Source of the DNA: Bdellovibrionales bacterium
GTDB taxonomy: Bacteria > Bdellovibrionota > UBA1018 > CAIMNF01
Direction: 5' to 3'
NCBI GenBank assembly: GCA_947462765.1
Contig: CANHQK010000004.1
Span: 11,206-75,205, forward strand
Length of the DNA stretch: 64,000 nt
Below the pieces are notes generated by a model that worked only from the letters and a program-made list of their open reading frames with translations, was not told the DNA's origin and ran no database searches. Of this stretch, positions 20,482 to 56,300 are shown piece by piece. A program made the translations under genes and the position numbers. Each line of letters opens with the position of its first letter. The first letter of the stretch is position 1.

Positions 20482-20639
20482 GGATCGTCTCCTCTTGAGA
20501 CTCTTTCGGACGTTCCCCTGTTTTTCTTGAATGGGCAAAAGTTCACCATTCAGGTTTGCGGACCCCTTCCGAAGAGTGTGATGTGCGGACCGGAAGACGG
20601 CGCATAGAACCAACCGAACCGTTTGACCAGGAGGATTAC

Positions 20640-32610: not shown

Positions 32611-32622
32611 TGAAAAAGAAAC

Positions 32623-32650
32623 TCCCCGGGGTGGCACTGCCCCCCGGGGA
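32623..32650 (+). terminator. GC-rich stem-loop after flagellin 2 (no U-tract)
   Basis: TCCCCGGGG (10-nt loop) CCCCGGGGA, a 9-bp perfect stem. It is followed by CTAAACC, not a T-run, so it is a hairpin of uncertain terminator function. Confidence 0.4.
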
Positions 32651-32736
32651 CTAAACCAAAACGGCAAGGATGCTGTCTGCACATCAAGGAACGTGTGCGG
32701 ATCTTAGGGAGAAGAAGAATATGAACGGAGGCTGAT

Positions 32737-38587: not shown

Positions 38588-38588
38588 A

Positions 38589-39989
38589 TTATTTTTTAGG
38601 AGGTAGGCACTGGAGCACCTGGATCGACTTCTCGTTCCGAACCGTGATCCCTTCGATATTGCATTTGTCGTTCACAAAAAACCGGTAGGCCCCGGTCTTC
38701 AAAACGAAGGGGAAGTTGGTGATATAATTTCCCAGCTCCTTCTCTCCCCCATCAAAAACATGAAAACCGACATTGGTCGGATAATTCACCTGAACGACTC
38801 CAATTCCATCAATAGTGATTTCATGTTTACCGCCCGGAACAATCTTGAATTTCTGCTCGATCTTCTCAAAAAAAGGATCCCCTGATATCCGGACATCATA
38901 AACACCCGACTTCACAATGGCCGGTTCGTCGCTAGAAAAACTTTGCACAACTTTTTTATCCTTGTTCAGGATCTCGACATCCAGGAGGCCCTTGAAAAAA
39001 TGCACGGTCATCTGCCCCGAGCCCGCCACACGGAGGGTCACTCGCTTTCCGGGCGGGATCTTGAACTCCTTGAATGAGTAGACCGGTTCCAACAGCACCT
39101 CGGCACTGTAAGTCCCGGGGGGTAGGCGGACTCCATACGATGAAATAAAATCCCGAACGTAGACTCGCTCGCCATTCTTGATTTCAAACAGCCTCACCGT
39201 GGCTTTCGGATCCGGACTCTCGACAAACAAGTTATTGCCGACCCGTTTACCCTGGGCATTGGTTGCCCCTCCCATCATATTGCTAATGTCGTCGAGGGAC
39301 TGCTGGAGCTGCTCCGGGGACTTCGCACCGAAGGTCTTTCCAAGACATCGCAACTTATCGAGATCTTTGGATTTTTCATCAAGTCCGATCCCCGTAACGA
39401 ACATCTCGAGATCGACGATCTTCTCTTGAATCGCCTTCTCGAGAATCTTGCAACTGTCCCCGCCGCAGGTCTCCTCTCCATCCGTATAAATCATCACCCG
39501 TTTGGGACCCGGGTAATTCTTCAGCTGTTCGATCGCCAGTTCAAGCGAGTCCGCGATCGGAGTCATCCCGAGTGGCGACAGTTGCTTCACAGTACTGTCT
39601 ATCTTAGTCAGATTTCGCTCTCCAACCTTGATAGCAAGATAAGTGTCACCACAATCCTGCTTCCGGCGGCTGCCGTAAACCACCATCCCGACCTCGGCCT
39701 TTTCACGCCACTGATAACGAAGGTATTCATTAAACAACTTCTTGGCATAAAACATCTTTGATTTGCGTCTATCGAGCAACTGTCCCATCGATCCGGAGCT
39801 GTCCAAAAGGATCACCACTCGCGGCTTTAACGCCTGTTCGAGATCCTCATCTGAGTATTCGATGCTCGTCTGGAGGTCCTTCAAATCCGGGATCTCGAGC
39901 TTGAATGGCGTCGGGGTAGGGCTGCTCCGCGCATCAGCCCTTTGAGCAAAAAGAAGCAGGAACATAAAGCCAACCAGAATCAGCCTCAT
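38589..39989 (-). CDS. Secreted von Willebrand factor A (VWA) domain protein with a C-terminal beta-rich region
   Basis: Signal peptide MRLILVGFMFLLLFAQRADA. MIDAS motif VVILLDSSGSMG (DxSxS) with downstream ...T.IADSL... and YTDGEE. The C-terminal ~230 aa have repeated beta-strand-like segments. Confidence 0.8.
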   Translation of the reverse strand: MRLILVGFMFLLLFAQRADARSSPTPTPFKLEIPDLKDLQTSIEYSDEDLEQALKPRVVILLDSSGSMGQLLDRRKSKMFYAKKLFNEYLRYQWREKAEVGMVVYGSRRKQDCGDTYLAIKVGERNLTKIDSTVKQLSPLGMTPIADSLELAIEQLKNYPGPKRVMIYTDGEETCGGDSCKILEKAIQEKIVDLEMFVTGIGLDEKSKDLDKLRCLGKTFGAKSPEQLQQSLDDISNMMGGATNAQGKRVGNNLFVESPDPKATVRLFEIKNGERVYVRDFISSYGVRLPPGTYSAEVLLEPVYSFKEFKIPPGKRVTLRVAGSGQMTVHFFKGLLDVEILNKDKKVVQSFSSDEPAIVKSGVYDVRISGDPFFEKIEQKFKIVPGGKHEITIDGIGVVQVNYPTNVGFHVFDGGEKELGNYITNFPFVLKTGAYRFFVNDKCNIEGITVRNEKSIQVLQCLPPKK

Positions 39990-41305
39990 TTCTTCTTCTT
40001 TCCGCCTGAAAACAGGCTTCTGATCGGATCTTCAATTCTGACTCCAACCACAAAACGGAAATCCCCCTCGCGCTCGGTCGCCCGCGTACCTTCCGGAAAA
40101 GATATCGGAACCGGGACCGACTCCAGGGTCACAGGTCCGGAAAAACGCAAATCATAACTCCGGAAACCATAAGACCCTTCGATGAACCAGCGCTTGAGCA
40201 AGGGAATAAAATCAATCCACGCGAGAGCTGTGGCACTCACGCGCACAGCCATTCCCGTAGACCCCGGAGAACTGGTTCCTCGTGATACGCCCTGGTCGGC
40301 AGCTGTGAGGATCGGAAAGTAGCTCGCATCCAGGGTCAGTCCCTGAAACGCGAACGCAAAAAGGGATTTTTTCTCCGGCTTCCAAATCAGCGGCACAAAT
40401 GAATACCTGGCTCGGATACCCAACCCCATTCCGCTCACCTCGGTAGTGAGCAGGTTCTCGTCGGCATTGTCGGTCGAAAAACGATCACTCAAAGAATCGA
40501 TACGCCCCGAAATCTCGAGCTTTTTACCAAGTATTGGCGGGAATCGGTAATGGAAGCCGAGCACTGAAACCGCCTCCTCGGAGGTCACCACATTTGAATA
40601 ATAGGTTGAGGTCGGAAAGCGTCCCCCGTGGGAATCGGAAGTGATTCCAATTGGATAAAAATCAGAAAAATACGCCCAATGCTGATTTGAAAATCGGTAC
40701 TGGGTCGTGCGCTTCTCTAGATTTGCAACAGTGGTGCTCGTAGTGTCCAAGTCGCCCAAAAGGAGGCCCATGCCAAATTCAGCATATCCGGGACGGTCAT
40801 TGACACGATCTGAGGACTCCTCTTCAGGTAATAAAAAGTCATTCTGACCCTTCACATCCCCGTTTGCGAGCGAATTGGGGTCCGCCAAGGGAGCGCCAAA
40901 ATCGCCCTCGATCGGGTATTTGATGACCGTGTCTCTATCCAAATCGACTTGCAGCTCCAAGACTCCTGACTTGGGATTTCGCGTCTCCGAAATGACACGC
41001 CCGGTTGCAATCACCTCAATTCTTTGGCCCTTCTTTCGAAAAAACATAACGGGAGCACCGTCAACAAAAGAGTGAGCTCCAGGAAGCGTCAACGATACGA
41101 CCCCCTCTTCCTCACGAACTACTCGCATGGCCGACTTCATGAGCTCTTGCAGTTTGGGCGCCAAAAAAGAAACCCCCTGGGGCTTCGGCGAAGGGGATGG
41201 TTCAACCTCAGCAGCCCTCGCCATTAAGGATGAGCCGAGCCCCGTGGCTAAGCCACCAAAGAGAACAAGCCCGGCAAGGAGGAGCATTTTTTTGACTGAT
41301 TCCAT
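39986..41305 (-). CDS. Putative outer-membrane beta-barrel protein (first gene of the OMP-VWA-birA operon)
   Basis: Signal peptide MESVKKMLLLAGLVLFGGLATG. The C-terminal 250 aa show many amphipathic beta-strand-like segments ending in aromatics (VSVLGFHYRF, GLGIRARYSF, LFAFAFQGLTLDASYF, FIEGSYGFRSYDLRF, DFRFVVGVRIE). ATGA overlap with the VWA gene. Confidence 0.55.
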   Translation of the reverse strand: MESVKKMLLLAGLVLFGGLATGLGSSLMARAAEVEPSPSPKPQGVSFLAPKLQELMKSAMRVVREEEGVVSLTLPGAHSFVDGAPVMFFRKKGQRIEVIATGRVISETRNPKSGVLELQVDLDRDTVIKYPIEGDFGAPLADPNSLANGDVKGQNDFLLPEEESSDRVNDRPGYAEFGMGLLLGDLDTTSTTVANLEKRTTQYRFSNQHWAYFSDFYPIGITSDSHGGRFPTSTYYSNVVTSEEAVSVLGFHYRFPPILGKKLEISGRIDSLSDRFSTDNADENLLTTEVSGMGLGIRARYSFVPLIWKPEKKSLFAFAFQGLTLDASYFPILTAADQGVSRGTSSPGSTGMAVRVSATALAWIDFIPLLKRWFIEGSYGFRSYDLRFSGPVTLESVPVPISFPEGTRATEREGDFRFVVGVRIEDPIRSLFSGGKKKK

Positions 41306-41533
41306 TCAAGTAATTTTCAATTATTATTATTGAAAACAGTGTATCTCCCGGTACTTGGGTTTGCACTGATTTAATTGATAAAGCACGAACCGCATGGCCA
41401 ACGTATCGCATGAAACTCAAGTGTTCTTGAACTTATTCCGATCCCACTCTAAGCCTACGTCTTTCGCAGGCAGGGTCCGAAGGGACACATTGACGCTACC
41501 CACGCAGGTTTTTACACTGATGATTGGGGTTGC
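41306..41533. promoter_or_regulatory. Divergent intergenic control region between the OMP-VWA-birA operon (-) and the giant-lipoprotein operon (+)
   Basis: 228 bp that are AT-rich relative to the genome. They contain the inverted repeat TTTTCAAT-N7-ATTGAAAA at 41314-41336 and a lone TTGCAC / TTGATT cluster. No CDS. Confidence 0.5.
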
Positions 41534-44500
41534 GTGAAAGTTTGGGGGAATCCAGTGCCATTTCGCGGCGTAGGAAAATCACTATTACAGCTTTCGCTCA
41601 GGGGATTCCTCACGGGGATTCTTTTGGCAGGATGCTCGGACCTTGGGTTCCAAGGTGGCGTGATTCCGACGAACTTCAATGGCATCAAGGTGATTGAAGC
41701 CGTATCGCCCGAGGCTTTTCAGATGACCTGGGATCCTTATCCTGGGGCTACTCAGTACCGCGTCTACATGCCAGAACTCAATGAACCCATCGCTCGCCCC
41801 GGGTTCACCACACTCATCACCCGGCCTCCGGGAGGAGTGAACAGTAACGATGGAACCTATTCTTTCTCCGTTACGGCCGTAGATCCGACCACAGGATTGG
41901 AGCAGGGAACGCGTAGCAATTATGTTTCCGCCAAGCTCCTGCCTCGCTTCAACTTCAAGGAAGACGGTGACATTCGCGCACTAGACATGATTCCTTCCAC
42001 CCGTCACGCCGTTCGCGTGGCCTGGACCGCTTACCCTAAGGTGAACTACCAAGTTTACATCGGTGAGCGCTCCCCTTCTGGCCTTGTTGCTTACAACCTG
42101 GATGCTTCGTCCGGCTCGGTACTCGGTGACGGTTCGATCGAGATCGAGAACCTAAAAGAAGGTCGGGAATACTGCGCATTCGTGATCGCGACCTATGCGG
42201 ACTCCACCCGGGATGGCCCGAACGGTCAGCCCTTTACCGGCCCGGTAGCGTCTTTGGTCGGAACACCGTCTACCTTCAACACCAGCGTGGTAGGCACCTC
42301 TCAGAAGTGTGTGCGCACCAAGTCGGACCCTGCCTTTACGAGCACGGTAGAGCAAAGCAAGGTTTACGCTTCCAAGGCCACCCTTTCTAACAAACCCTCC
42401 TTTTTTGCCGACGTCGCAGGGGATACGACCTCGGATGGACAGGGATCTGTTCGGGTTTCCATTTACCGCATGGATGTCGCAACGGGCAATGGAACCTACA
42501 TAGGTGCGTTCAATGGTACTGGTAAGATTGATGCGGCCGAACCCCTTCCTCCCGGCCGTCACACCTTCAAAGCGATCTTTGAAAAACTCGGTGGCAATTC
42601 AACCGCTCAGAAAGAAAAGGGCGTGATTGTAGGTCCGACCGGGATTGAGCCCTCCGAACCCGTGGGAAATCCAGCAGACCGCCCATTTGTTTACGTCCGC
42701 GGCCTGGGCGCAGCTCCCACAGACGAAGGATATTACCCCGAGAAACAGCAAGGGGGGCTCGGGTCACAGCGCATCGGTGCTGCCGTTGCCATGGGTGATT
42801 TCAATTGTGACGGTCGATATGATGTGGCGGTCGGAATGCCCGAATACGTGATCACCTTGCCCGCGCCGGACAACCGCCCGGCAAACTTGGGTAAAGTCAT
42901 GGTCTATTACAACATCGCCTCGAGTGCCTCTTCCACGGCCCAGGGGGTTCGTTCGCAAGAGATTATTTTCAATCTTTCCGACAGAACCACCACCTTCCCA
43001 GGTGGCCGTGATCTGAGGCTTGGAACGCGGCTCCATGTCGGGAACTACAATAGCGACAATCAGGCAACGCACAATCCGCCAGGATACAACGATCCGACAC
43101 TGAATAAACAGTTCCAGTGCGACGACCTTGTAATCGGCTCGGGTTATGGACCCAGTATCTTGATGTATGGCTCTCGCGACACGAGTGGATCCAACGGAGG
43201 CTTGGTCTACAGTGGTCCCAAAGTGTTCATGGAGAACACCCAGTCGTGTAACCCGATTGATAATCGCTGTGACCCGACAATTTACTTCTACTCCAACCCC
43301 GCAGTCTCGCTCTGCCGCAGTTATACAAATGGCGACTTTAACGGGGATGGGTTTGAGGACTTGGCCATCGGAAGTGGTTCCGGTGCCGGGATTTGGGTGC
43401 TCCGTGGGAGTGAGTATGGGCTCATTCCGCCGAAAGCCCGTCGATTCTCCTCTGACCAAACTGCCTATACCTTTACTGGGGGAGATACTTTTTCAACCGA
43501 CGATGGGCCGGGTGGACGGATTAACTTCCCGTATGTTCACTCGAACACGAGCAGATTCTTCGCCCCATCGAGTTTCAGCAATGGATTCGCACCCTCTGCC
43601 ACTGGCTGGAGCAACACCAATAATTTCGGAGCCTCACTCGGGGCAATCCGTAATGCATTTTACGACCCGGACAACAACAGGTCTAAATCGATTCTGCTAA
43701 TCGGGAGTCCAGACACTCCCAGCACAGGCGCCGCCGGGACGACCCAAAGCAGAGGCCGCGTGTTCGCTTGCGTCCTCAGATCATTGACCGGGGATCGTCC
43801 TTCACCCCTGACCGGAACTTTCAGCAACTCGTTCAACAATGATTCAATGGAAAATCAGGCGTGGGATTGCAATCATGCGATCAATCCTCCCATTCGCTCA
43901 GGAGTCCAGCCCTTCACATCAATCGCCTCGGCCTCAGGGTTCGGCTCAGCAATGGCGACCCTCGATAACCCTCTGAGATACCGTGTCGCGCCTTTTTGGG
44001 AAGGAGGCTCCCAAGAATCGTGTCCTGCGATTGCTGGGGGTGTGGAAGCTCCTCGAGCTCACGGAAACTGCTCCTCTAGCTCGTTGAACTTGGGGATCCC
44101 CGGGGGAGTCGCCATTGGGGCCCCGGGTAGCAATCAAGTTTTCGTTTACTACGGTGTGGCCGTACCCGGAGCGATGGGGACTCGAAACACCCAAGGCTCG
44201 GCCCGCAATGCCTACATCGGCCAGTACTTCGATCGGCTACTGGATGGTTCCACCAATACAGTTCACAATACGACCTCAGGAAGCACCAGTGCCCCGGCCT
44301 ATGCATCAGAAGTAACAACCTCTGATCCATGCACCGCCACCAACTCAAACACGGAAGCATGCTACATCCAATTGATCACCCAACCCTCGACACCATCCGG
44401 GTCTTTCGGCCTGACCTTGTCCAGCCTTAGAGGAAACATCATCTCAAACGAAGGAGACAGTCCCCAGGACTCAACCCTCGGGGTATCCGCACCCTACCGC

Positions 44501-46924
44501 TCAGTCAACATCGGCGGGCTTTCTTATTCTGAAGTGGGAACTGTTTACCTTTACAGACAAGCTTCGAGATTCTCAAGCGATCCGATCATCATTGGGCCCA
44601 CCGCGAATACGGCCCAACAGCGCCCCCGACAGTCGACTGGGTTCTCAATGACCCAAGTCTCGCCAATCGACTACAGTGGCCCCCCCAACAACATGATTCG
44701 GTTCGGACTGGGTGGAATCGCGGCAGGACCCCTGGAAGCACCGATTCCAGGATCTGGGTACTCTTCGAATTCTGATCTGATTATCGGAGTCCCTGGGCAC
44801 GTTAAGGTCACCGATACGAACGGGGCTCCAATCCCTCCCGTTTTTGATAATGGTGCCTTTACGACTCTTTTTTCTCACGCCGGAACGTACAATCGGTTTC
44901 GAGTTGGACAGTCTGGGATCTCCGGATGGAACCTCACTGACACCATTTTTGAACCATCGGGATCCATCTCAGGTCAAGAATCTAACCTGCGCTTCCATCA
45001 AGCGGTTTCAGTGGGAGACATTCTCGATCTTGATGGCCTCTCTGACGTGGCTGTCCGCATAGCCCGTGGGAGCACCCGCAGTCGCGTGAGGATTTATAGG
45101 GGCAATCCTTGTGCGGACTGGCGCGGCCAATCGTGTCGAGTGACCCTCAAGCGTTCTACCAATCAATTCGTAGAGTTGAATGTCAGCAGCGATGACACCG
45201 CTGGTTTCCGGATCATTCCTACCGGCGTGGTGTCCGGCTCACTTGGTTCATTGTTTCTGGTGGGAGAGTCAGCCTCTTATCTTTTCTTCGCAGGGGCTGG
45301 TGGAATCAACCAAGGCGTTCCATCGGAGGTTTCCAACCCAGGGAGCCCCAGAAAGTTCACCACCACAAACCTTCCGAACTACCTGCCCTTTTCGAACTCC
45401 TCATTTTATAACGCAGAAACAACTGATGTAACCACATCTCTCGATCCGGGACGGAGTTTTGCTGTCGCGGACTTTAATGGTGACGGCAAGATGGACTTGG
45501 CCTTCGGCCAAACCGTTACAACTCTTGAAAATAACGGGATTTCTGACAACCGCCAAAGCCCGAACTGCCCGGGGGCGGGGAACTCGTGCCTCTCATCCTC
45601 CACCAACACCAATGCGGCGTCCCGCGTGGGGCAGGGACGAGTTTACGTGATGTACGGAGGCGGGGCAAACGGTTTTTATCCACAAGCTGATTCGAACTTC
45701 GGATACCCGATTCGGGCCGAGTACACTGGGCAAGACTTCGGAACCTACGGCTTCACAGGCTTCTCATCCACCCGCGCGGACAACAACACACTGGGAGCCC
45801 CCTGCACCACTCAAGGACTGTGTCCCAAGATTCAAGTGTTTGCCGAGGCAGACACCACCACTTTTGGCAGTGTCTTGAGCGCCATTCCTATGGGCACCTG
45901 CGCAGGGAAGCCGGTATCCGCCCTCGCGGTTCGAGCCCAGTATTCAGACCGGGCCTCAGTCTTCATTTACAAACCAAGGTGCATTCTTGATGAAACCAAC
46001 CTTTCGGGGCTGGGTAATTACGGGGTCACGAATGATCTGAATACGATCGAGATCAAATCCAACGACGTCGGACTGAACGCCGCCGTGAGCACCGGTTTCG
46101 GAACCTCCTTTGCCGGTTTTTCGAAACTCATGGAGCGTCCCGCCAATGATTCGCCCCTCATGGGGCATATTGTGATCACAGACCAGGGCTCTCGCCGCTT
46201 GTTCATCCTGCCTATGGTGTCGAGTGGGGCGGAAAAGGGCAAGGTTCTCCTGAGCGACAATCGAATGTACCCCCCTGTCACGAGCGGGGGACAAGGCACA
46301 TTTCTCCCCACTGCCTCCGGCACCTACGAAAGCTTTGGCGGCAAAACAATCGACTACAGCTCCTCTGACTTTTTATCGGGTCACTCGACCGGGTTGGACT
46401 CTGGGTTCGGCAGCTCCCTCGTCAATCTCGGGGACTTAAACGGTGACGATTACGAAGACCTTGGCATGAACCTCTTCCGAATGAACAAGAAAGAAACCAG
46501 CAGGAGCTACCTCTACCAGGGAGGGGTTTTGGTTATTTTTGGCGGTAGAATGGGAGCACAAACCCACCAGACCGAATCGGGCGTCACCACACAACTCGAA
46601 CCGAAGGCAGACGCGGAATGCTTCTTGAGGCAGGAAGTGATCGACGGGCAGCCTCGCCGGATCACCCGCTGTAATCCAACCCTGGTTTTCGCGCCCCAGC
46701 CGGCCGGCTCGACCCGGATGGGCCAGTACGAATATTCCTCTTTAACCAAGTTTTCGGTTTTGGAAACGGGGGTCCGCGACAGCACGACTCGAGTGTGTCA
46801 GCCGGGCTCGTCCAATGAATGTCTCGGGTCTTGGATTTTCGGAGTGCCCGGCCGGGACTCCACCGAGACCACTCCGGGAGCAAAGCCCATTCTTCAAGGG
46901 GGAGCCTTTTATGTTCTACCGTAA
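41534..46924 (+). CDS. Giant surface lipoprotein 1 (~1796 aa) with FG-GAP / integrin-alpha-like Ca-binding repeats
   Basis: Lipobox GILLAGCSD. Repeated motifs GDFNCDGRYDVAVG, GDFNGDGFEDLAIG, DLDGLSDVAVR, ADFNGDGKMDLAFG and GDLNGDDYEDLGMN (the D-x-N/D-x-D-G-x-x-D loops of FG-GAP/VCBS repeats). G/S/T/N/D-rich with few Lys. GTG start. Confidence 0.8.
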   Translation: MKVWGNPVPFRGVGKSLLQLSLRGFLTGILLAGCSDLGFQGGVIPTNFNGIKVIEAVSPEAFQMTWDPYPGATQYRVYMPELNEPIARPGFTTLITRPPGGVNSNDGTYSFSVTAVDPTTGLEQGTRSNYVSAKLLPRFNFKEDGDIRALDMIPSTRHAVRVAWTAYPKVNYQVYIGERSPSGLVAYNLDASSGSVLGDGSIEIENLKEGREYCAFVIATYADSTRDGPNGQPFTGPVASLVGTPSTFNTSVVGTSQKCVRTKSDPAFTSTVEQSKVYASKATLSNKPSFFADVAGDTTSDGQGSVRVSIYRMDVATGNGTYIGAFNGTGKIDAAEPLPPGRHTFKAIFEKLGGNSTAQKEKGVIVGPTGIEPSEPVGNPADRPFVYVRGLGAAPTDEGYYPEKQQGGLGSQRIGAAVAMGDFNCDGRYDVAVGMPEYVITLPAPDNRPANLGKVMVYYNIASSASSTAQGVRSQEIIFNLSDRTTTFPGGRDLRLGTRLHVGNYNSDNQATHNPPGYNDPTLNKQFQCDDLVIGSGYGPSILMYGSRDTSGSNGGLVYSGPKVFMENTQSCNPIDNRCDPTIYFYSNPAVSLCRSYTNGDFNGDGFEDLAIGSGSGAGIWVLRGSEYGLIPPKARRFSSDQTAYTFTGGDTFSTDDGPGGRINFPYVHSNTSRFFAPSSFSNGFAPSATGWSNTNNFGASLGAIRNAFYDPDNNRSKSILLIGSPDTPSTGAAGTTQSRGRVFACVLRSLTGDRPSPLTGTFSNSFNNDSMENQAWDCNHAINPPIRSGVQPFTSIASASGFGSAMATLDNPLRYRVAPFWEGGSQESCPAIAGGVEAPRAHGNCSSSSLNLGIPGGVAIGAPGSNQVFVYYGVAVPGAMGTRNTQGSARNAYIGQYFDRLLDGSTNTVHNTTSGSTSAPAYASEVTTSDPCTATNSNTEACYIQLITQPSTPSGSFGLTLSSLRGNIISNEGDSPQDSTLGVSAPYRSVNIGGLSYSEVGTVYLYRQASRFSSDPIIIGPTANTAQQRPRQSTGFSMTQVSPIDYSGPPNNMIRFGLGGIAAGPLEAPIPGSGYSSNSDLIIGVPGHVKVTDTNGAPIPPVFDNGAFTTLFSHAGTYNRFRVGQSGISGWNLTDTIFEPSGSISGQESNLRFHQAVSVGDILDLDGLSDVAVRIARGSTRSRVRIYRGNPCADWRGQSCRVTLKRSTNQFVELNVSSDDTAGFRIIPTGVVSGSLGSLFLVGESASYLFFAGAGGINQGVPSEVSNPGSPRKFTTTNLPNYLPFSNSSFYNAETTDVTTSLDPGRSFAVADFNGDGKMDLAFGQTVTTLENNGISDNRQSPNCPGAGNSCLSSSTNTNAASRVGQGRVYVMYGGGANGFYPQADSNFGYPIRAEYTGQDFGTYGFTGFSSTRADNNTLGAPCTTQGLCPKIQVFAEADTTTFGSVLSAIPMGTCAGKPVSALAVRAQYSDRASVFIYKPRCILDETNLSGLGNYGVTNDLNTIEIKSNDVGLNAAVSTGFGTSFAGFSKLMERPANDSPLMGHIVITDQGSRRLFILPMVSSGAEKGKVLLSDNRMYPPVTSGGQGTFLPTASGTYESFGGKTIDYSSSDFLSGHSTGLDSGFGSSLVNLGDLNGDDYEDLGMNLFRMNKKETSRSYLYQGGVLVIFGGRMGAQTHQTESGVTTQLEPKADAECFLRQEVIDGQPRRITRCNPTLVFAPQPAGSTRMGQYEYSSLTKFSVLETGVRDSTTRVCQPGSSNECLGSWIFGVPGRDSTETTPGAKPILQGGAFYVLP

Positions 46925-49900
46925 AACCTCTGCTCGAAGGCTAACCATTCTTTTGCTGCCGCTACTTGCCTCCTGTTCAGACGGCCTCCTCGGAGGAAAC
47001 ATCACCGCCCAATTCGCGGGGATCAATAAGGCTACCGTAATGGGGCCTACCTCCGTAAGCATCGACTGGAAACTTGACTCTAAGTGCTCGAGCTATGAGA
47101 TTTATGCTTTGACCGCAAGCACCACCAGTAGGCTACGTCTTGCGTCGGTTCCACCCGTGATCTTGAACGCACAAGAAGATCAGATTCAGAGCGAAACTTC
47201 TTATAGTTTTGCCGTAGGCTGCAACCGCGAAGGAAAACTCACCGGGCTTGATGTGAGCACAAACGTCAGCACCTGGAGGGAGTTCGACGGGGTCATCAGC
47301 AATCCCGAATCCTTGGAAGGCGGGGCTTTCCGCTTCACCTGGGATTACCCGCAGGACCAGGGCACGCGCTACCTCGTGTATGCCATAGAATCACTCATTC
47401 CAGGAGCTCCCACTCAGCTGACTCGGAAAAACTCCTCAAACTTCCGCATCGGATATCAAGACGAACCGATTTGCACCACCTTCAATAACCGGATCACACT
47501 CGGGCCAGGTGGGGAGTGCAATCCGGGGCCTTCGAAACTTAAACCAGGTAGCCTCTATCAGTTTCATGTAGTAGCCCAGTACCCCGACAACAACTACTCA
47601 AACAATTTAGCGTCCAACGCCAAGAGTAAACTGATCGATCCGAGTTTCGAAGCGCCGAATTGCAACCTGACCCAACTGGGTCTAGGGCCTGAGGCTGGAA
47701 GCACCTACCTTTATTTGCGATGTTCCGACAACGGGGCCGCAAACTCCTGTGGATTTAACAATATTACGGCCCGAGCCTATCAAGGCATAGGGGGAGTCAG
47801 AAACCCCATCTCTGGTGAACTTACTCTCAATTCATCACAAAGCAACATTCTGCAGATCCAAGCCACCCCCGGCCTTGACCCAACAAACGAGCGCTTGGTC
47901 AAGAACCTCGAGGTGGAATACACCTGCCGACGCCCCGGACAGCCGATCGAGAGAATGGTGGTACGGTACGACAATTCCAATGGCCGCCGTGAGCCACTCA
48001 TGAAATATGGCAATTCCGGCCCAGGTCGGAACTACGAAACCGCGCCTGAGCAATCGGTTTGGTCCGACCCACGATCAGCCAACCCTACCCTGCTTTCTCC
48101 GAGTCGAATGGGAGAAAGTCTGGCTGTTGGAGACTTCGATTGTGATGGAAATCCGGATCTCGCTGTGGGCTTGCCAAATATCACCTACAACCAAGCTCCC
48201 TACTTCAATGAGAACCCGTCATCCGGCGCGGTCAAGATCTACTATAATTATTCGACATCCGCAAACGGCACCATTACCGCTGCTAACGGGATCCAAATGC
48301 TCACCTTTGGCGATCTGTTAACAGGATCTCGTTTCGGTGCGAGCCTTTCAGCTGGAAATATCAATAAAGACGTTGCCAAGTCAGTAGTCGACAACTTTGA
48401 GAGCTACTATTCTTGTGACGATCTGATTATCGGCGCACCGGGCAACGCGAATGAAAGCCTCGGTCGAGCTTTCATTTTTTACGGGCAACGCCAACGCTTT
48501 CCGAATTATCCAGTGAAAGCGGCCGATCTTCCTAAAAACAGCCCGACCTGCAGCAGCTCTTCTTTGATCCAGCAAAACTGCACTCCCGTTGAGCTCATCA
48601 CGAGTGATTATGCAGAAAAATTTAGAGTTCACCCCGACACTCACAACATCAACAATACGACCTGGTGGGGGAACAGGGGTTACTTCGGACATAGCGTTGC
48701 TTACCTTCGAGACTTTAATGCTGATGGATATGGAGACGTGGCCGTTTCAGACCCGAACTGCTCCTGGGATGGCTATGAGACTTACAATGGCTTCGGATTT
48801 ACCAACAACGGGGGGAATTCAATTTTGGATGTAGGCTGTGTCTACGTCTATTTTGGTGGAAAAGAGGGGATACAAACGGTCGACGTGGGTGTTCCCGTCC
48901 ACCCGAATCTGGAACAGTTCTTCCCGGGAAACATGGTGTCCTCGCCCTACATCAAAGTCTATCCACCTTTCATCCAGGCCGGCATGCATTTCGGGACGAG
49001 TATCGCGGCCGGGGGAGATATCGATGGGAGACTGCCTGTACCCATCCCTGTTTCTCAGTCACAAATAGCACTGGCCAATGGCTATGATTTTGTCGTGGGT
49101 GCGCCGGATTTTTCCTATGCCTCGCCAGTGTCAAACAGCGGGGGTCAGCTGCCCGCTACGCAATCAATGAATTATTTGGCCTTGAATGTTGAAGACCCAT
49201 ATGTCAGGCAAGCTGACGCAAACTATTCGACCACGACTACTTCCAGAAAAAACACACCTCCGATCAATGGAGCTTGGACTAACCAACAATGGTCGGCTGG
49301 GGCGGCCCCCCTGCCTCCCGCAGGAGACAATGCCACATCGGGCCTACGGAATTCCACAGGCATCGTATTCGCTTATTTCGGAAGAAGCGCTCTGCAGGAC
49401 TACAACGTAACGGTCAACGCGGGGGCGAATTGGTTTCCAGAGGGCAATGGCGCTGGCACAATCAGCTTACCCGGCGGGAACAACTTCAAGAGTCTTTTAG
49501 ACCTTTTTTCAGGGAGCATCCGTGATCGCCAGGGACATCGGGGTCACTTGGCGCTCGCCAGCTACGGGGCTTCCGACCTTGCTCAAATCAGGCCAACACG
49601 CTCATTTTTCAATTGCGGAACCCGGGGCGCGCCGACGCTTCCTGCAAATCACCCCACGCACGGCCAAAGGATTCATCACTATTCCTGTCTCGCAGGCCGG
49701 AATAATTTTTCAGCCATCTTCCCGCACATCAAGCACTCTGACCCTGCTGTGTCGGGATTCGGTTCGAGCTTGAGCATTGCAGGAACCGAAGACTCAAATC
49801 TGATTGCTCAGTACCACTTGAGTGAATTTCTCGGAAGCTCTAGTTTTGCAGAGACTTCTGCCGAGAACGGCGTGCTTCAATTAATCTACAATGCCCAAGG

Positions 49901-52900
49901 ACAGGTGCATCAACGTATCAGGGGCCACAACATGTGGGAGGTGGCTGTCAGGAATTTCAGCGGTGATAGCACCATCGCAAATCTGGCTTCAAACAATTTG
50001 TCATCTGGTTTGACGATCGGATCCCCCGTGAATGCGGCGAAGGTCCGCCGGTCGGCACTAAATGAGTTCATTTCCATGGATGGGGCAACCGCTCCAACGG
50101 GTGGCTCTCGGCCTCAAATGGACCTGAATCGAGATGGATACGGAGACGTAGTCGTCGGCAGCAGACTCAGTCCCAATACTTCCATCGGACGATCAACCCT
50201 GTCCATTCATTACGGGAATTTCGCCGGTGACTTCTCCTACGCCTATGGCCGTTACCTCAATGACCCGTCTTCCTCACCCTCGACAAGCAACTCCTCGTGC
50301 TTGGCGCAACGTGGCTCATCCATCACCACGCCCGGTCCTTCAGCGAACAATGCCTCGCTCACTAACGCTGCAACTGCCTTCTCCACCTTCCAAGCCCAAT
50401 CCAAAGTGGTTTTTGACTCGAAGACCATGACGGTTTCGGCCGAGTTCCCGAACCTACGGCTACCGAGCAATGCCGGCATCGTTTATTTTGTTGATGGAAC
50501 AGACGCAACGACCTCCGTCACAAGCCGTAACGGCGCCTCAACGGCAGGTTCATCTTGTAAACCGCAGATTAGGACTTTGTTGGGGTATCAGCCATCATCC
50601 CTGGCATCGGCGGACGTCAATGGTGATGGGATGTCCGACATGGTTGCTGGCTATGCCGAATCGAACGGTCGCCAAGGCTCAACCTCCGTCCTTTACGGAA
50701 ACCCCTTCAATGGTGTAGGCGCCGAGGGTGTGATCAACACCTCTTCTCCGCAAGCACTCTTCGGCTCATCCGTAGCCGCTTCCTCATGGAAGTTCCTTCT
50801 GGGCACAAACGAAAGACGTAATCACGAGCACCTGCGCCGGGACGTCTGGGTGGGTGCCCGTGGGCGTAATTCCGGTGAAGGGGCTGTATTCGCCCATTCT
50901 TCTTCAAGCACCATTACTGCTGATGTCCCACTCAACACAGCCGTGGCGGGCTCGGAAAATCCATTTACCGACAGTTCCAACTCACCCAATCGTCTTTATG
51001 CGGAAACTTCCCGCATCATTGGTGACATCAATGGGGATGGATTTGACGAAATCTTGGTTCCAGTCAAAAGAGTGGATCTGAATGGTGCCGAATATTTTGA
51101 CGGAATGATCTATTTCGGCTCATCCATGGGTCCTGTCACCAACTCCTTTTGCAGAGCTAGAATATCCGAAATGAGGACCCAACCCACGAATGGCCAGACT
51201 CTTTCTGCAAGTGAGTGTTTTGGTTCAGTCGGTGGCTCAATCTCGGCGTATATAAATGGGACTCTACTGCGTCTGCCACAGTATTTGGAAAGGCCTACCG
51301 GGGTTGGCCCGAATTGGATTCGTCACAGCTTCCGGGCTGGTGATGTCAACAAAGACGGCCGTGAGGATCTGGTATTGTACGACCAAGGCACCTCATACAA
51401 CCAACTCTACCTGTTCTTCGGGTCGGAGTCCGGCATTATCAACGGCGAACCATTGTGGGGAGTCAGTGCCAACCGAAATCCCCAAAAGGTTGCTACCAAT
51501 GTTGCCAGGCCACAATCGGATTATGAGCTCACGACCAATATGGATTGGCAGGATCGTCACTCTAAGGCTGTAGCCTACGGTGATTTCAATGCTGATGGTT
51601 ATGCGGACTTTGCACTCGGGCAGCCCTCAGCTAGCAGTCCAGCCCTTAGTGCGACATCGGCTGACGGTAACGGCAGATGGGACTGCTCGAATACCTACTA
51701 TGATAATAACCTAACCTACACTGGTCTTTGTGAAGGGACCGGGAACGGGTCGGCACTGGATGATTCTGGTCATGTGGTGGTATTTTACGGGAGTAGTGGC
51801 GGTTACCAGACCCCCTCCCGCTTGGCGACGCCGATTGACGCCCAGGCCCCAGCGACCTGTGGCGATTATCTCACGGGCTGCACAAGTGCTGCAAACTCTC
51901 CGTTTCGTGAGGTTTACGGAAGCTTGTATTTCAGTAACTCGACCTATCGCCTCCGATGGAGCGAGACCGGCACACCCGCTGCCGACGAGGGCGAGGCAAC
52001 ATGTAATCCAGACGCTGAGTTGAACAATGGACCAAGAAACTGTGGTAGCAGAGCCACCGTAATCCGTAGTCCGTTTTTTCACAACTTCGCCGGGGGCGCG
52101 CTCTACCTGAGGGACCAGTTCTTTGGTACCAGCCTCGCGGCAGGGGATTTCAATGGAGATGGCATCACAGATCTTGCCGTCGGAGCCCCTCGCCACCAGC
52201 TGGATCGGTTCGACCTCCCAGGATGGGCGAACGAGATATCGCTGTATGGATTGACCTCCGGCGGTGGACAAGACACCTCTCAACGGGGTTCTGTATTCTT
52301 GTACTACGGATCAAGAGGGGGTGTGGTAGCTCCCCGCGCCCAGGACTACTATGGTGATACCGGAATGGGACTGAGTGGTGCCAACCTGACTCCGGTAGGA
52401 TCCCGTGGCCTGTTTGCACTTTCTCCCGAGCCTTGGAATTCTTCCAGCGGAGTCACCCAGCCCACGCTTGATGGTACTGGGTCAGGGCGCAAATTCGGCA
52501 TGAACATGGCTGTAGGTGATTTCAACGGGGACTCACTCCACGACCTGGTGGTGAATTCATCGCGCGGCCAACTCTATGTGTACTACGGTCCTCTGTGCAA
52601 TGTGGACAACTCGCGCGCCTATGTCCGAGCCATGTATGCAAATGCGGGCCTCAGTATGCCAGCATTCAACGAGCCTGGGACTCCCGTATTGTCTGATCCG
52701 GGGCCGTGCCCAACCTTTAACCTAAACAACTACACCAATCGGGCATCGATAGCCGTAGAGAATCGTACCAAAAGACAAATTCCACAGACGATCGCCCTTC
52801 CTGGCATTAACCCCAACCTCGATATGAAATTCGGAAGTGTCTTGTTAGCAAGTCTTCCATCCAAGGGGGGCAATATAAACGGAGATCCGGGAATTCAGCC

Positions 52901-53324
52901 TGGTGATGCAGTGTCAGGCACCTCGGACCTGATCGTGGGTGGCGGTGGGCCCGATGCTCATGACACAAAAATCCCTCGAGTGGGGGGACGCCGGAGCGGC
53001 ATCGGGTTCATTTTATTCGGACACTCCTCGGGAGGGGCACTCAACTCAAGACCGGGGCTTTTTGCATCAGCTCCGGCCGACTACAACTCGACAATCTTCT
53101 CGTCCACTTCCGGAAACCAGACCCGGCTTCATTTTTCTCCTTTGGCTCTCAGGCCCTATGAGGCGAATGGATCGGTGGGTATCTTTTTCTTGAACAATGT
53201 CAGTTTAGGGGATTTGAACGGGGATAAAACCGGGGACCTGCTGATGCCGACTGTCGATATCGATTATTCGGGACATCAAGCCACACCGGTCATCTCCGGA
53301 GGCGGATTTAAACTGATGTACTGA
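46911..53324 (+). CDS. Giant surface lipoprotein 2 (~2137 aa) with ten or more FG-GAP-like repeats
   Basis: Lipobox LLPLLASCSDG. Motifs GDFDCDGNPDLAVG, RDFNADGYGDVAVS, LNRDGYGDVVVG, ADVNGDGMSDMVAG, GDINGDGFDEILVP, GDVNKDGREDLVLY, GDFNADGYADFALG, GDFNGDGITDLAVG, GDFNGDSLHDLVVN and GDLNGDKTGDLLMP. ATG at 46911 with SD AGGGGGAG, overlapping the end of gene 1 by 14 nt. Ends ...KLMY. Confidence 0.8.
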   Translation: MFYRKTSARRLTILLLPLLASCSDGLLGGNITAQFAGINKATVMGPTSVSIDWKLDSKCSSYEIYALTASTTSRLRLASVPPVILNAQEDQIQSETSYSFAVGCNREGKLTGLDVSTNVSTWREFDGVISNPESLEGGAFRFTWDYPQDQGTRYLVYAIESLIPGAPTQLTRKNSSNFRIGYQDEPICTTFNNRITLGPGGECNPGPSKLKPGSLYQFHVVAQYPDNNYSNNLASNAKSKLIDPSFEAPNCNLTQLGLGPEAGSTYLYLRCSDNGAANSCGFNNITARAYQGIGGVRNPISGELTLNSSQSNILQIQATPGLDPTNERLVKNLEVEYTCRRPGQPIERMVVRYDNSNGRREPLMKYGNSGPGRNYETAPEQSVWSDPRSANPTLLSPSRMGESLAVGDFDCDGNPDLAVGLPNITYNQAPYFNENPSSGAVKIYYNYSTSANGTITAANGIQMLTFGDLLTGSRFGASLSAGNINKDVAKSVVDNFESYYSCDDLIIGAPGNANESLGRAFIFYGQRQRFPNYPVKAADLPKNSPTCSSSSLIQQNCTPVELITSDYAEKFRVHPDTHNINNTTWWGNRGYFGHSVAYLRDFNADGYGDVAVSDPNCSWDGYETYNGFGFTNNGGNSILDVGCVYVYFGGKEGIQTVDVGVPVHPNLEQFFPGNMVSSPYIKVYPPFIQAGMHFGTSIAAGGDIDGRLPVPIPVSQSQIALANGYDFVVGAPDFSYASPVSNSGGQLPATQSMNYLALNVEDPYVRQADANYSTTTTSRKNTPPINGAWTNQQWSAGAAPLPPAGDNATSGLRNSTGIVFAYFGRSALQDYNVTVNAGANWFPEGNGAGTISLPGGNNFKSLLDLFSGSIRDRQGHRGHLALASYGASDLAQIRPTRSFFNCGTRGAPTLPANHPTHGQRIHHYSCLAGRNNFSAIFPHIKHSDPAVSGFGSSLSIAGTEDSNLIAQYHLSEFLGSSSFAETSAENGVLQLIYNAQGQVHQRIRGHNMWEVAVRNFSGDSTIANLASNNLSSGLTIGSPVNAAKVRRSALNEFISMDGATAPTGGSRPQMDLNRDGYGDVVVGSRLSPNTSIGRSTLSIHYGNFAGDFSYAYGRYLNDPSSSPSTSNSSCLAQRGSSITTPGPSANNASLTNAATAFSTFQAQSKVVFDSKTMTVSAEFPNLRLPSNAGIVYFVDGTDATTSVTSRNGASTAGSSCKPQIRTLLGYQPSSLASADVNGDGMSDMVAGYAESNGRQGSTSVLYGNPFNGVGAEGVINTSSPQALFGSSVAASSWKFLLGTNERRNHEHLRRDVWVGARGRNSGEGAVFAHSSSSTITADVPLNTAVAGSENPFTDSSNSPNRLYAETSRIIGDINGDGFDEILVPVKRVDLNGAEYFDGMIYFGSSMGPVTNSFCRARISEMRTQPTNGQTLSASECFGSVGGSISAYINGTLLRLPQYLERPTGVGPNWIRHSFRAGDVNKDGREDLVLYDQGTSYNQLYLFFGSESGIINGEPLWGVSANRNPQKVATNVARPQSDYELTTNMDWQDRHSKAVAYGDFNADGYADFALGQPSASSPALSATSADGNGRWDCSNTYYDNNLTYTGLCEGTGNGSALDDSGHVVVFYGSSGGYQTPSRLATPIDAQAPATCGDYLTGCTSAANSPFREVYGSLYFSNSTYRLRWSETGTPAADEGEATCNPDAELNNGPRNCGSRATVIRSPFFHNFAGGALYLRDQFFGTSLAAGDFNGDGITDLAVGAPRHQLDRFDLPGWANEISLYGLTSGGGQDTSQRGSVFLYYGSRGGVVAPRAQDYYGDTGMGLSGANLTPVGSRGLFALSPEPWNSSSGVTQPTLDGTGSGRKFGMNMAVGDFNGDSLHDLVVNSSRGQLYVYYGPLCNVDNSRAYVRAMYANAGLSMPAFNEPGTPVLSDPGPCPTFNLNNYTNRASIAVENRTKRQIPQTIALPGINPNLDMKFGSVLLASLPSKGGNINGDPGIQPGDAVSGTSDLIVGGGGPDAHDTKIPRVGGRRSGIGFILFGHSSGGALNSRPGLFASAPADYNSTIFSSTSGNQTRLHFSPLALRPYEANGSVGIFFLNNVSLGDLNGDKTGDLLMPTVDIDYSGHQATPVISGGGFKLMY

Positions 53325-53353
53325 CTGAATCAGGACGAAAGGGAAGAGGGGGG

Positions 53354-56300
53354 GTGAAACGCTTGAAGATGTCGTGGCTATCTGCACTGCGCGTGGGCGC
53401 GATCTCACTTCTTCTGGGTTCGTGTACCGGGGGCGAAAACGCTCTTCCCAATCGGGCCGGGGGAATTCGGATCGCTCCGGGGGAACGCGTACACGTGGAC
53501 CTCCAGGACATTGTCGCCCTGAACCCGCGTCGATACAATGTCGTACTGAAAACCGTAGGCCCGGACTATCTTCCTAAAGGGGACATTTTGGATCTAACCG
53601 CCGCAGCCAAGGCGGCACTGGCAAGTGGATCCACCCGATTTACTTTCACGCTCCCCAAAAACACCACGACTCCTAAACCCTTCCTTCTGGCCGTTGATAT
53701 CCCCGACCTCAACATCAATGACTCTCTTGTTGATGTGGTTTTTTCGGGTAACTCATTCGTAAGGCCCGGAATTGCTTCGCGTTTGGCTTTTGATCTGCTG
53801 GATTCTTACAACACGACACAGAATCCAAAACCAATTCAGGCCTACAGTGAAGCGGAATTCACTGCCATTCGGGGAATTATTCAATCCCGCATCGATGCTT
53901 TGATGTCTCAATCTGAAAAGCTCAGCTTTTCAGTTCTTCCTTATCTCAAACTCATGACTTTTTTTCGGAACGGACTGGCCTACAACCCCTGGGTGTTGAG
54001 CGCTGTCCGCGATTTCGGAGTCAATTTCACCTTCACGGAATCCACCTACCCGGGGATTGTCGCCGAAGACACCATCGAAAACTCGCTGAATACCTGCACA
54101 CGCGAAATTTGCTTCAAACTTGCCCGCGACTTTAAAATCAATTCTGAGAATGCACCGGTTGCGCCCTTCAAAGCCCGAGCCAATGTGGCCACTGAGGTCC
54201 CGGTCGGCCAGGCCATACCGATGCCCGGCAAGAACATTGCCGTGAGCGAAGGCATGTGTGGCATCTCCGGATGCTCTCCCCGTTTGAGCGTCGTCGTTAA
54301 GCCTTTCGACCCCGAAGGAGACCATATAGAAAAGCTCCTCTGGGTAAAATATCGACCCAGGCAACTTCCTCCGTCCATGAGGAACCGCCCGACCTTCGAC
54401 CCACTTAAGGAGCCGATTGAAAAATCCACGGCTCTCAAGTCCGACTCGTTTGGAAAATACCTGCCCGTTACGGACATCAGCCTTGATGAGCCGGACCGTT
54501 ATGAGCTATATGAAATCAGCCATGATGAAGCCCTCTTGAAGCGCAACTATCCCGATAGCGTTTGTGCAGAGAGCGGCGCCCCAGTATTCAACGACCAGTG
54601 TCACACGGCCTATCGCGATGTTTTTGCCATGTACACCGACGGCATGGTCTGGGTCCCCTACCGGTGGAACTTTGTATACAATGACACCAACCGCAAACCG
54701 GAATTCATCAGGAACGCACAAAACGAGATCAACAGTACCCTGTACGACGAGGCCATCCAGTCGGGCTTCCCCAACCCCGAGTCCGATGTTCCGGGTGTTC
54801 CGGGGTGGAAACTCCACAATTCCCATTGCGAAAACAACCCGAACGCCACCCCCACTCCAGCCGCTCCTCCATCTGCACAGCCGAGCGGGACCCCGATCAT
54901 CAACTACTACACCCGGATCCAGGATAAGAAGGACGGCCCTTGGAGCTGTGCTTTTTTGGCTTTCGATCCCGACATTGATCAAGACCCCAACGGTGCCCCG
55001 GACCAGTTCTACTTCAAAGTGACCGGCAGAACCATGCAGACCAAGATCCGTTTGGGTGGGCAGATCACGGCTTCGAGCCCGGGGGTGCCGTCAACATTTA
55101 CTCAGATGCCGATGCCCTTTTGGCCTCCACCACCGCCCCCAGCCACACCTCGCCCTCCCCAGCAGGCGCCCATGGAGTTGCTGAGCTGCCCCGCTGGCCA
55201 CACCCGATGCGGTGCTGCGATTGCCCAAGTCACCGTCGATAATGCCGTGAAAGAACAGACCCCGGAGGTTTCGTTCGACATAGAAGTGTTTGATCGCGCC
55301 GAAAACGGGATGTTTTCAATGGCTACCGCACAGAGAGGGGTGATGTTTTCCCCCAAACCGCCACTGTTGATCAACTTCTCAGACCCGCCAACGACCCGCG
55401 AATCATTCAATACGATCACCAATTATTTCCCTGAACCCAATGGTCAGGCTGAGCCGATGCGCCTCAGGTTCGACGCTTACCTGGATGAGATTTTAGCTCA
55501 GGCATTGCCCGTTAACAATTCTTACGAAGCCATCGGTTTTGATACGAGCATGCTTGGGAATACCAACCGAGCGAACTTTAGAATTCAGTCACTAGAGCCT
55601 GGCTTAATTGACTTCAACATGAGTCCTTATCTGACCCAACCTAGATCACTCTGTTCGAGCGCTAGCCCGACAGACAACGGCACCCAATGTCGCGGAACCT
55701 TTAATGTGGGGACAGCGACCATCAATGGGGAATTGCGAGTGATCCAAGGTTCGCCAGGAACCTCCGTGAGGATGGGCAACTCCCTGCGCTTTGCAGACTC
55801 CGGAAACTATTCATTTCCCCGTGAGTATGACTTTTCTTGCTTCACCAACTCCGGACCGGGGTGGAATCAGACTCCCGTGTCAACCGCTACAGGTCGGAAT
55901 ACCTCAGGGGGCTGGGCATTCGAGATCAACTTCATTGACTTTGACAACGTCAACTTAAATCCTGACGAACCGCCTGAAGTCATGTACCTGAGTCCCCAAA
56001 ACAATGTCCGTCATTCGGACTCGTTATTCTACTGTAATGCGCCTGCCCCGAATATGGACTCTCCCATTTTGGGGCATGTTTACACTGCAACCAATGCTGC
56101 GGGCACCAACGCCAAAGACCCGGATCAGTGCCTATCTCTTGCCCCCCTTCAGGGCAAGATCACCCTTCAACCCGTACCTGTTCTTTATGAAGGCACAGAA
56201 ACCCTTGGCGCTGCCCCATCGATCAGAAAATTAGTGTATCACCGGATCCGTGGCATCTGGAGGCCCAAGGATCAAGGCCTAGAGGGCAAAACGGACAACC

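Follow-up and report, generated by a model that had tools for sequence, protein, structure and literature searches.

A conserved gene cluster of the Bdellovibrionota with two paralogous giant FG-GAP lipoproteins, a candidate contact complex of the cell envelope

The DNA analyzed here, hereafter called the window, is a stretch of 64,000 nucleotides (nt) from a Bdellovibrionales bacterium (GenBank assembly GCA_947462765.1, contig CANHQK010000004.1, positions 11,206 to 75,205 of the forward strand), and positions are given within it. Its list of open reading frames (ORFs) contains three large genes on the same strand. Gene 1 (41534..46924, +) encodes a lipoprotein of 1796 amino acids (aa) in which an FN3-like N-terminal part is followed by an FG-GAP propeller region with five Ca loops. 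Gene 2 (46911..53324, +) encodes a lipoprotein of 2137 aa (MFYRK...LLASC) with an FN3-like N-terminal part and then two predicted integrin-alpha-type propellers with ten Ca loops. Gene 3 (53354..62278, +), which starts 29 nt past the stop of gene 2, belongs to the same operon and encodes an orphan giant lipoprotein of 2974 aa without FG-GAP loops; it is conserved in this position in all complete loci. A preliminary description of the region, made from the sequence alone, had pointed to genes 1 and 2 as paralogous-looking FG-GAP propeller proteins. To this our analysis adds that both are lipoproteins, that a third giant lipoprotein lies in the same operon and that a protein with a VWA domain and an adhesion site that depends on metal ions (MIDAS) is linked to them.

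The ORF enclosing gene 2 extends from 46815 to 53324, and its true start is the ATG at 46911. Direct reading of the junction (46898..46924, +) gives the Shine-Dalgarno sequence GGGGGAG at 46898-46904, followed by this ATG and by the TAA of gene 1 at 46922-46924. The tandem genes with overlapping stop and start of the preliminary description are therefore real, the overlap being 14 nt, and the stoichiometric co-production of both proteins that had been proposed from it can reasonably be inferred. At this junction the reading frames of genes 1 and 2, taken from stop to stop with the start codons unmapped, overlap in orthologous loci, too. The start of gene 1 is ambiguous, as it may be the GTG at 41534 or the in-frame GTG at 41555, which has the Shine-Dalgarno sequence GGGGGA and is at least equally good; from GTG 41555 a normal lipoprotein signal peptide is retained. 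The composition of both proteins agrees with the earlier statement that they are poor in Lys and rich in Asn, Ser, Thr and Gly. In detail, gene 1 and gene 2 contain 2.2 and 1.8% K, 12.2 and 11.3% G, 10.7 and 10.9% S, 6.0 and 7.8% N and 8.1 and 6.4% T, respectively.

All three giants carry a lipobox of the form [LVI][ASTVI][GAS]C, namely LLAGC in gene 1, LLASC in gene 2 and LLGSC in gene 3. A relaxed lipobox pattern is present in 8/9 ortholog ORFs of gene 1 and in 6/7 of gene 3, and the orthologs of gene 2 have Cys-containing signal peptides at their N-termini. In addition, nearly all Cys residues of the gene 2 family are invariant, which fits extracytoplasmic disulfides. Residue +2 is Ser in genes 1 and 2 and Thr in gene 3, and in none of them Asp. 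In E. coli, a Ser or Thr (non-Asp) in this position favours the outer membrane, suggesting that the giants may be placed in the outer membrane or on the surface.

For the Ca loops, the pattern D[FLVIM][ND].D[GSKR]..[DE][LIVFM] was used, which is the nine-residue core of the motif given in the preliminary description, and 500 shuffles served as control. Gene 1 contains three matches, gene 2 ten and gene 3 none, compared to a shuffle expectation of 0.00-0.02. A small hidden Markov model (HMM) made from the matched loops adds two loops in gene 1, so that the D-x-N-x-D-G-x-x-D type is represented by five loops in gene 1 and ten in gene 2. This agrees with the earlier counts of at least five and ten, while the total is exactly 15 and not more than 15. 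Likewise, the 14-residue formula proposed before recurs in its nine-residue core, but in full it fits only three loops, and neighbouring loops lie 80-561 aa apart instead of the 150-400 aa that had been given.

In detail, the loops of gene 1 (all +) found with the pattern are DFNCDGRYD (residues 422-430, 42797..42823), with ligands kept in 7/7 orthologs, DFNGDGFED (601-609, 43334..43360), which is conserved in orthologs, and DFNGDGKMD (1313-1321, 45470..45496), which aligns with gene 2 loop 1558. The loop HMM adds DLNGDDYED (1634-1642, 46433..46459), again conserved in orthologs, and the degenerate loop DILDLDGLSD (1162-1171, 45017..45046), which aligns with gene 2 loop 1372 and has a one-residue insertion that is absent from the orthologs, most of which are canonical there. 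The ten loops of gene 2 (all +) were all found with the pattern and are conserved in orthologs. They are 408 DFDCDGNPD (48132..48158), kept in 15/15 orthologs, 601 DFNADGYGD (48711..48737), 1071 DLNRDGYGD (50121..50147), 1235 DVNGDGMSD (50613..50639), 1372 DINGDGFDE (51024..51050), 1478 DVNKDGRED (51342..51368), 1558 DFNADGYAD (51582..51608), 1746 DFNGDGITD (52146..52172), 1870 DFNGDSLHD (52518..52544) and, in the last blade, 2101 DLNGDKTGD (53211..53237). Loop 1746 lies in the best FG...GAP blade, FGTSLAAGDFNGDGITDLAVGAP, and is also supported by Pfam and by the PDB sequence search. Of the 15 gene 2 orthologs, 13-15 retain the Ca ligands at positions 1, 3, 5 and 9, and so do 7/7 gene 1 orthologs. 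As this is the case despite a mean column identity of the ortholog alignments of only 43-49%, the loops are under selection and do not represent low-complexity chance matches.

The FG-GAP assignment of the preliminary description stands, since in a Pfam scan gene 1 scores 50.8 bits and gene 2 150.6 bits with FG-GAP (PF01839; cut-off 22.1; E 1.4e-13 for gene 1 and 7.8e-45, in seven stretches, for gene 2). With FG-GAP_3 (PF13517; cut-off 26.9) the scores are 37.8 and 85.9 bits. Both profiles stand for the integrin-alpha-type propeller of the VCBS superfamily. The only sequence relatives of gene 2 in the PDB are the propellers of integrin alpha-V and alpha-5, which are weak matches. Orthologs that have been deposited from metagenome-assembled genomes (MAGs) are labeled 'FG-GAP repeat protein' or 'integrin alpha' in public records, and the protein clusters are named only 'hypothetical protein'.

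Gene 2 was modelled as two pieces from alignments of 15 full-length orthologs, with a predicted local distance difference test (pLDDT) of 66-72 across models. In the model of residues 1272-2137 (predicted template modelling score 0.80, pLDDT 72) the second propeller is predicted at residues 1361-2137 (50991..53321, +). It has seven four-stranded blades, six of which carry Ca loops (1372, 1478, 1558, 1746, 1870 and 2101) and one an expanded non-canonical loop (~1985-2006). All 50 PDB matches listed by Foldseek for this propeller are integrin alpha heads, the best having an E value of 7.5e-8. The first propeller is predicted at approximately residues 395-1330 (48093..50900, +) with the Ca loops 408, 601, 1071 and 1235, with blades starting near residues 403, 478, 596, 697, 948(?), 1079, 1230 and 1284 and with large insertions at ~739-815, 837-924, 1018-1040 and 1105-1225. 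The unit 1284-1329 is disordered if modelled with the second propeller and moderately confident if modelled with the first. Integrin alpha heads are the best structural matches of both propellers, in support of the earlier suggestion of several propeller modules as far as gene 2 is concerned. Gene 1 probably also has two tandem propellers, judged from its collinear alignment with gene 2. A comparison of the two gene 2 halves by hhalign gave an alignment that is confined to the 90-residue stretch common to both pieces.

In the models, the loops are far apart because long insertions interrupt the blades or separate them from each other (loops, a helical insert at ~837-924 and beta-hairpins). The Ig-like or beta-sandwich spacers between blades that had been assumed are not seen there; instead, FN3-like beta-sandwiches are found at the N-terminus. 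In gene 1, this N-terminal non-propeller region comprises approximately residues 34-400 (41633..42733, +), is FN3-like or Ig-like (fn3 E 0.0012, below cut-off) and is collinear with the N-terminus of gene 2. In gene 2, it comprises approximately residues 23-384 (46977..48062, +), is FN3-like (fn3 E 0.0027, below cut-off) and contains conserved Cys pairs; Cys and Trp are among the invariant columns of its alignment. Bdellovibrio homologs retrieved with a gene-2-like query have PF00041 in their records; several shorter ones match the query only partly and may be gene-1-type paralogs.

The paralogy of genes 1 and 2, suspected before, is borne out by several comparisons. By BLASTP they share 27% identity across 233 collinear residues, and hhalign aligns residues 18-631 of gene 1 with residues 6-655 of gene 2 (E 2.1e-51) and residues 1077-1393 with residues 1307-1644 (E 4.5e-21), both collinear. 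In a joint family alignment the loops 408, 601, 1372 and 1558 of gene 2 correspond to the loops 422, 601, 1162 and 1313 of gene 1, while the six remaining loops of gene 2 align with positions of gene 1 where the motif is lost. By this alignment, gene 1 has lost about half of its loops. B. bacteriovorus has one-to-one orthologs, proteins of 1596 and 1726 aa, each with ~25% identity and each the best match of its own gene, so that the two genes must have arisen before Bdellovibrio and the lineage of the window separated. The full-length orthologs of gene 2 are 31-68% identical and confined to the Bdellovibrionota, beyond which scores drop to motif-level matches.

For gene 3, no match was found with Pfam using the whole protein, four pieces of it or seven family members, save one PKD_4 at E 0.0024, nor with NCBIfam, PADLOC or a PDB sequence search, and the best hit of a PDB profile search was a designed FN3 (E 0.035). 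It shows no similarity to gene 2 by BLASTP. Boundaries of the form 'V-x-V-x-N-x-x-P' recur near residues 1690, 1925 and 2523, suggesting tandem Ig- or cadherin-like domains. The counterpart in B. bacteriovorus has 2058-2063 aa, and its position is conserved from the MAGs onward.

Two further genes lie upstream and are divergent from gene 1. The first, u439 (39986..41305, -), encodes a secreted 439-aa orphan with a signal peptide that is assigned to the cluster by linkage. The amphipathic beta-strand pattern of its C-terminal half makes it a putative outer-membrane beta-barrel. Searches of Pfam, NCBIfam and the PDB returned no match for u439, distant family members included, and the family has only 54 representatives among 1.84 billion proteins, none of them with a Pfam domain. 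The second, VWA466 (38589..39989, -), encodes a secreted 466-aa VWA protein with a beta-rich C-terminal half (Pfam VWA_2 and VWA, and alignment). Its MIDAS site is complete and invariant (D63-x-S65-x-S67 ... T143 ... D170), its signal peptide lacks Cys and its family is confined to the Bdellovibrionota. An assignment of VWA466 to the BatA, CglB or cobaltochelatase type was rejected because the NCBIfam scores lie far below the thresholds; with the CglB model NF033757 it is 15.7 bits at a cut-off of 200.

The arrangement with u439 and the VWA gene on one side and genes 1, 2 and 3 on the other is found in six MAG loci of Bdellovibrionales/Oligoflexia. In cultured Bdellovibrio a single strand carries all five, gene 1 being followed by gene 2, gene 3, the u439-like gene and the VWA gene. 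This was read in Bdellovibrio sp. HCB288, in B. bacteriovorus CP020946.1 and, for the four genes within the examined stretch, in HD100 (BX842601.2, about 2.91-2.94 Mb). That the linkage is kept through this rearrangement argues for a functional unit. As far as the compared loci tell, the five-gene set is lineage-specific, and its conservation reaches from uncultured members of the Bdellovibrionota up to B. bacteriovorus HD100.

The members of the cluster have diverged to very different degrees. Compared to the closest relative (locus L004), genes 1, 2 and 3 are 45, 46 and 33% identical, whereas the values are 96% for RNase PH, 85% for BPL, 78% for QRPTase, 89% for the VWA protein and 69% for u439. 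Such a low identity of the giants next to highly identical flanking genes is typical of exposed surface proteins, and the uneven divergence suggests that the giants have undergone diversifying selection or allelic replacement.

Taken together, we consider it somewhat more probable than an even chance (a probability of roughly 0.55) that genes 1 and 2 code for ancient-paralog giant envelope lipoproteins which, with gene 3, VWA466 and u439, take part in one Ca2+/Mg2+-dependent contact complex at the outer membrane or the surface. Each giant of the pair has a lipobox signal peptide, followed by ~350 residues of FN3-like beta-sandwich and then by the predicted propellers. Structural binding of Ca2+ is the most likely role of the D-x-N-x-D-G-x-x-D loops between strands 1 and 2, which would stiffen blades that are interrupted by very long, disulfide-rich insertions, and these long insertions probably form the working, ligand-binding surfaces. 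Genes 1 and 2 would be made together via translational coupling at the 14-nt overlap, and the five proteins would assemble into a single complex that touches prey, the substratum or the predator's own envelope. The propellers would then be interaction platforms and the MIDAS protein a metal-dependent binder, in a loose parallel with the alpha-propeller/beta-I pair of integrins. Contact with prey or substratum appears to be the most plausible role.

Several points weigh against this reading. By sequence, the lipoproteins could be oriented towards the surface or the periplasm, and the +2 rule derives from E. coli. The barrel of u439 is putative, as the C-terminus has no canonical aromatic beta-signal. 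The domain of the VWA protein is a generic one, without the beta-I-specific 'DD' of the adjacent-to-MIDAS site (ADMIDAS) after DxSxS and without a PDB sequence match. Moreover, the VWA pair is divergently transcribed in the clade of the window, so that co-regulation is assumed. Finally, the confidence of the gene 2 models is moderate at a pLDDT of 66-72 and low in the long insertions, and the first propeller may have 7 or 8 blades.

The main alternative, which we regard as rather unlikely, is that the giants face the periplasm and form a scaffold or the outer-membrane part of a motility-type trans-envelope machine instead of surface adhesins. It draws on the genes downstream of gene 3. There, a 317-aa protein with an N-terminal membrane helix (u317, 62299..63252, +), which by neighbour comparison is kept only in the window's own clade, is followed by a 334-aa protein with a signal peptide, a periplasmic domain and a membrane helix, which runs off the end of the window (63296-64000, +). 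Beyond the latter, a membrane-anchored protein of 577-628 aa has the same kind of periplasmic domain joined to FliG_M and FliG_C, both weak or faint matches (L018 2599-4555; L025 17199-19906). In the window's lineage this FliG-like protein (628 aa) is encoded two genes downstream of gene 3, and HD100 has an ortholog of the gene (E 2e-43, 32% identity across 295 aa). The ortholog is found at a distance of 8 genes from the VWA gene of HD100 and is accompanied by genes of the MotA_ExbB and MotB_plug/OmpA types, which by genome position are possibly motA2/motB2 (bd3021/bd3020, PMC11323537). This unusual FliF/FliG-like paralog is only a few genes away from the cluster in both distant lineages, in HD100 with the MotA/MotB stator pair beside the cluster. 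However, the adjacency is loose, as u317 and the 334-aa gene lie in between in the window but a 407-aa gene, MotAB, a TPR gene, a 194-aa and a 325-aa gene in HD100. The very fast divergence of the giants also suits proteins exposed to the outside better than it suits an internal scaffold that is conserved, and NCBIfam detected no homologs of gliding proteins (Glt/Agl) in the cluster, with the CglB model far below its cut-off as given above.

The proposed contact complex could also be extended to a Bdellovibrionota-specific, integrin-like envelope machine, in which the paralogous double-propeller lipoproteins dock the MIDAS-VWA protein as a metal-dependent alpha/beta-like head on the orphan outer-membrane protein, with the third giant, and which, maybe coupled to the FliG-like protein and the MotAB stator, grips or moves along prey or surfaces. 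We regard this extension as doubtful; if it were true, the fast-diverging giants would set contact specificity. It is still less probable that the propellers act on polymers of the prey or the matrix, as enzymes or as modules that bind carbohydrates, similar to FG-GAP-like proteins of the polysaccharide lyase or lectin type, instead of serving as platforms for adhesion. A highly improbable explanation takes the giants as shell proteins of toxin delivery or polymorphic toxins, since Tc TcB- or Rhs-like proteins have FG-GAP-type propellers, too. Gene 2 indeed gives a weak match to TcdB_toxin_midN (PF12256; residues 1852-1892, E 0.011), and PF12256 is on record for a few of its orthologs. But the 15.5 bits of this match stay under the cut-off of 24.8 and concern one blade only, YD/Rhs repeats and a C-terminal toxin domain are absent, gene 2 ends in the last propeller strand, a lipid anchor at the N-terminus is not a feature of Tc and Rhs proteins, and no match to PADLOC or another conflict system was obtained. 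The absence of PADLOC matches for any of the six proteins of the cluster region also means that there is no sign of a defence system. Lastly, the preliminary description had named chance or low-complexity matches, here in non-genic or mis-called ORFs, as what would overturn its claim. Only the Asn/Gly/Asp-rich composition speaks for this explanation, and it is refuted by the shuffles (0.00-0.02 versus 3 and 10 matches), by orthologs with invariant ligands at 31-68% identity, by Pfam scores above cut-off and by models that are confident propellers.

Among known proteins, integrin alpha heads (alpha-6 7CEC, alpha-4 3V4P, alpha-5 4WJK and alpha-V 4UM8) resemble the predicted fold of gene 2 most closely, as its propellers superpose on their seven-bladed head with FG-GAP repeats, and in both, strands 1 and 2 are joined by Ca loops of the form D-x-[DN]-x-D-G-x-x-D. 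There are, however, clear differences. Gene 2 has two propellers per chain, with Ca loops in 4 of 7-8 blades of the first and 6/7 of the second compared to 3-4 of 7 in integrins, and its huge insertions separate loops by up to 470 aa compared to blades of roughly 60 aa. It lacks the thigh, calf-1 and calf-2 legs, the C-terminal transmembrane helix and GFFKR, and ends at the last propeller strand (GGGFKLMY), the N-terminal lipoprotein signal being its only hydrophobic segment. The bacterial protein, which is outside the metazoan family, would be held by its N-terminal lipid and carries the FN3-like modules ahead of the propellers. Integrin alpha is an obligate heterodimer with a beta subunit, which is composed of a beta-I VWA domain and hybrid, PSI and EGF domains. 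The linked VWA-MIDAS protein might be seen as a counterpart of this subunit, but it is without the ADMIDAS DD or a PDB sequence match.

Bacterial integrin-type seven-bladed propellers have been described before (Chouhan et al. 2011, PMC3192720). That study reports bacterial proteins that have 7 or 14 FG-GAP/Cage signatures, some of them forming tandem pairs, and more blades with Ca motifs than integrins have. As that study already includes tandem pairs with Ca motifs in most blades, this kind of propeller is known. The proteins of that study have a compact, regular build and, as was argued, no membrane anchors, whereas genes 1 and 2 encode lipoproteins with strongly expanded irregular blades that form a paralogous pair inside a lineage-specific operon. 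Genes 1 and 2 alone are further bacterial FG-GAP propeller proteins, and it is the setting of the cluster that adds to what is known.

Another parallel is the gliding machinery of Myxococcus, also a predator, with the integrin-like VWA lipoprotein adhesins CglB and CglD (PMC9946355; bioRxiv 10.1101/2023.10.19.562135). The complex proposed here would have several traits in common with the CglB/CglD-Glt system, namely lipoproteins of the outer membrane, a VWA adhesin with a MIDAS, dependence on Ca2+, Cys-rich proteins stabilised by disulfides and outer-membrane beta-barrels as partners. The integrin-like parts of the Myxococcus proteins are, however, VWA domains (alpha-I- or beta-I-like) and COMP-type Ca repeats and not FG-GAP propellers; VWA466 is no lipoprotein and fails the CglB model, and the cluster is without glt genes.

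Bdellovibrio adhesion is redundant and poorly understood. In B. bacteriovorus, the MIDAS lipoprotein Bd0875 acts at the predator-prey junction, with Bd1483, Bd0767 and Bd3132 as comparators (PMC11003981). A 2025 review counts four MIDAS proteins (PMC12428579), of which only Bd0875 has a phenotype (PMC11003981, PMC12428579). Bd0875 comes from the same organism group, has a VWA domain with a DxSxS...T...D MIDAS and has been proposed to function in dynamic predator-prey contact. It is described as a lipobox protein of 378 aa, in contrast to the VWA protein of the cluster (469 aa in HD100), in which an ordinary signal peptide is combined with a C-terminal half that is long and beta-rich. The primers published for deleting bd3132, bd0767 and bd1483 (PMC11003981) have no site in the equivalent locus of CP020946.1 at <=3 mismatches, and the VWA protein of the cluster is therefore probably not Bd3132, Bd0767 or Bd1483. 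In the proteomics supplement of PMC11003981, nothing relevant was found among proteins of 1596, 1726 or 2063 aa, and limited keyword searches of the literature retrieved no paper describing the five-gene cluster.

The cluster thus spans the Bdellovibrionota including the model predator B. bacteriovorus HD100, contains a MIDAS-VWA protein that is probably unstudied so far and offers a concrete candidate for contact with prey or surfaces that is accessible to genetics. Divergence of the giants is several-fold faster than that of the adjacent genes, as would suit proteins involved in contact specificity.

A membership of gene 2 in the XAC2610-related family (NCBIfam NF047539) was considered and rejected. 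The whole protein reaches 39.1 at a cut-off of 35, but no single stretch passes and the best one covers model positions 2-23 of 89, i.e. the Ca-loop motif, so that the score represents summed motif-level similarity only.

In the 228-nt divergent intergenic region 5' of gene 1, a promoter-like sequence TTGACG-17-TACACT (41490..41518, +) was noted as a consensus match only; its end at 41518 is just 15 nt before the GTG at 41534. The GC content of the cluster (window 38001-54000) is 0.52-0.55, slightly under the values of mostly 0.54-0.59 in the housekeeping genes on its left, a difference too small to make a case for recent transfer. Further upstream, three tandem flagellin genes of 290, 300 and 277 aa (30648-33570, +) match the multiple flagellins of Bdellovibrio-type bacteria, and about 20 kb upstream of the cluster there are genes for a GYF_2-domain protein (18165-19658), a PilZ-domain protein (20026-20655, -) and a MotA/ExbB-family protein (21752-22354, -).

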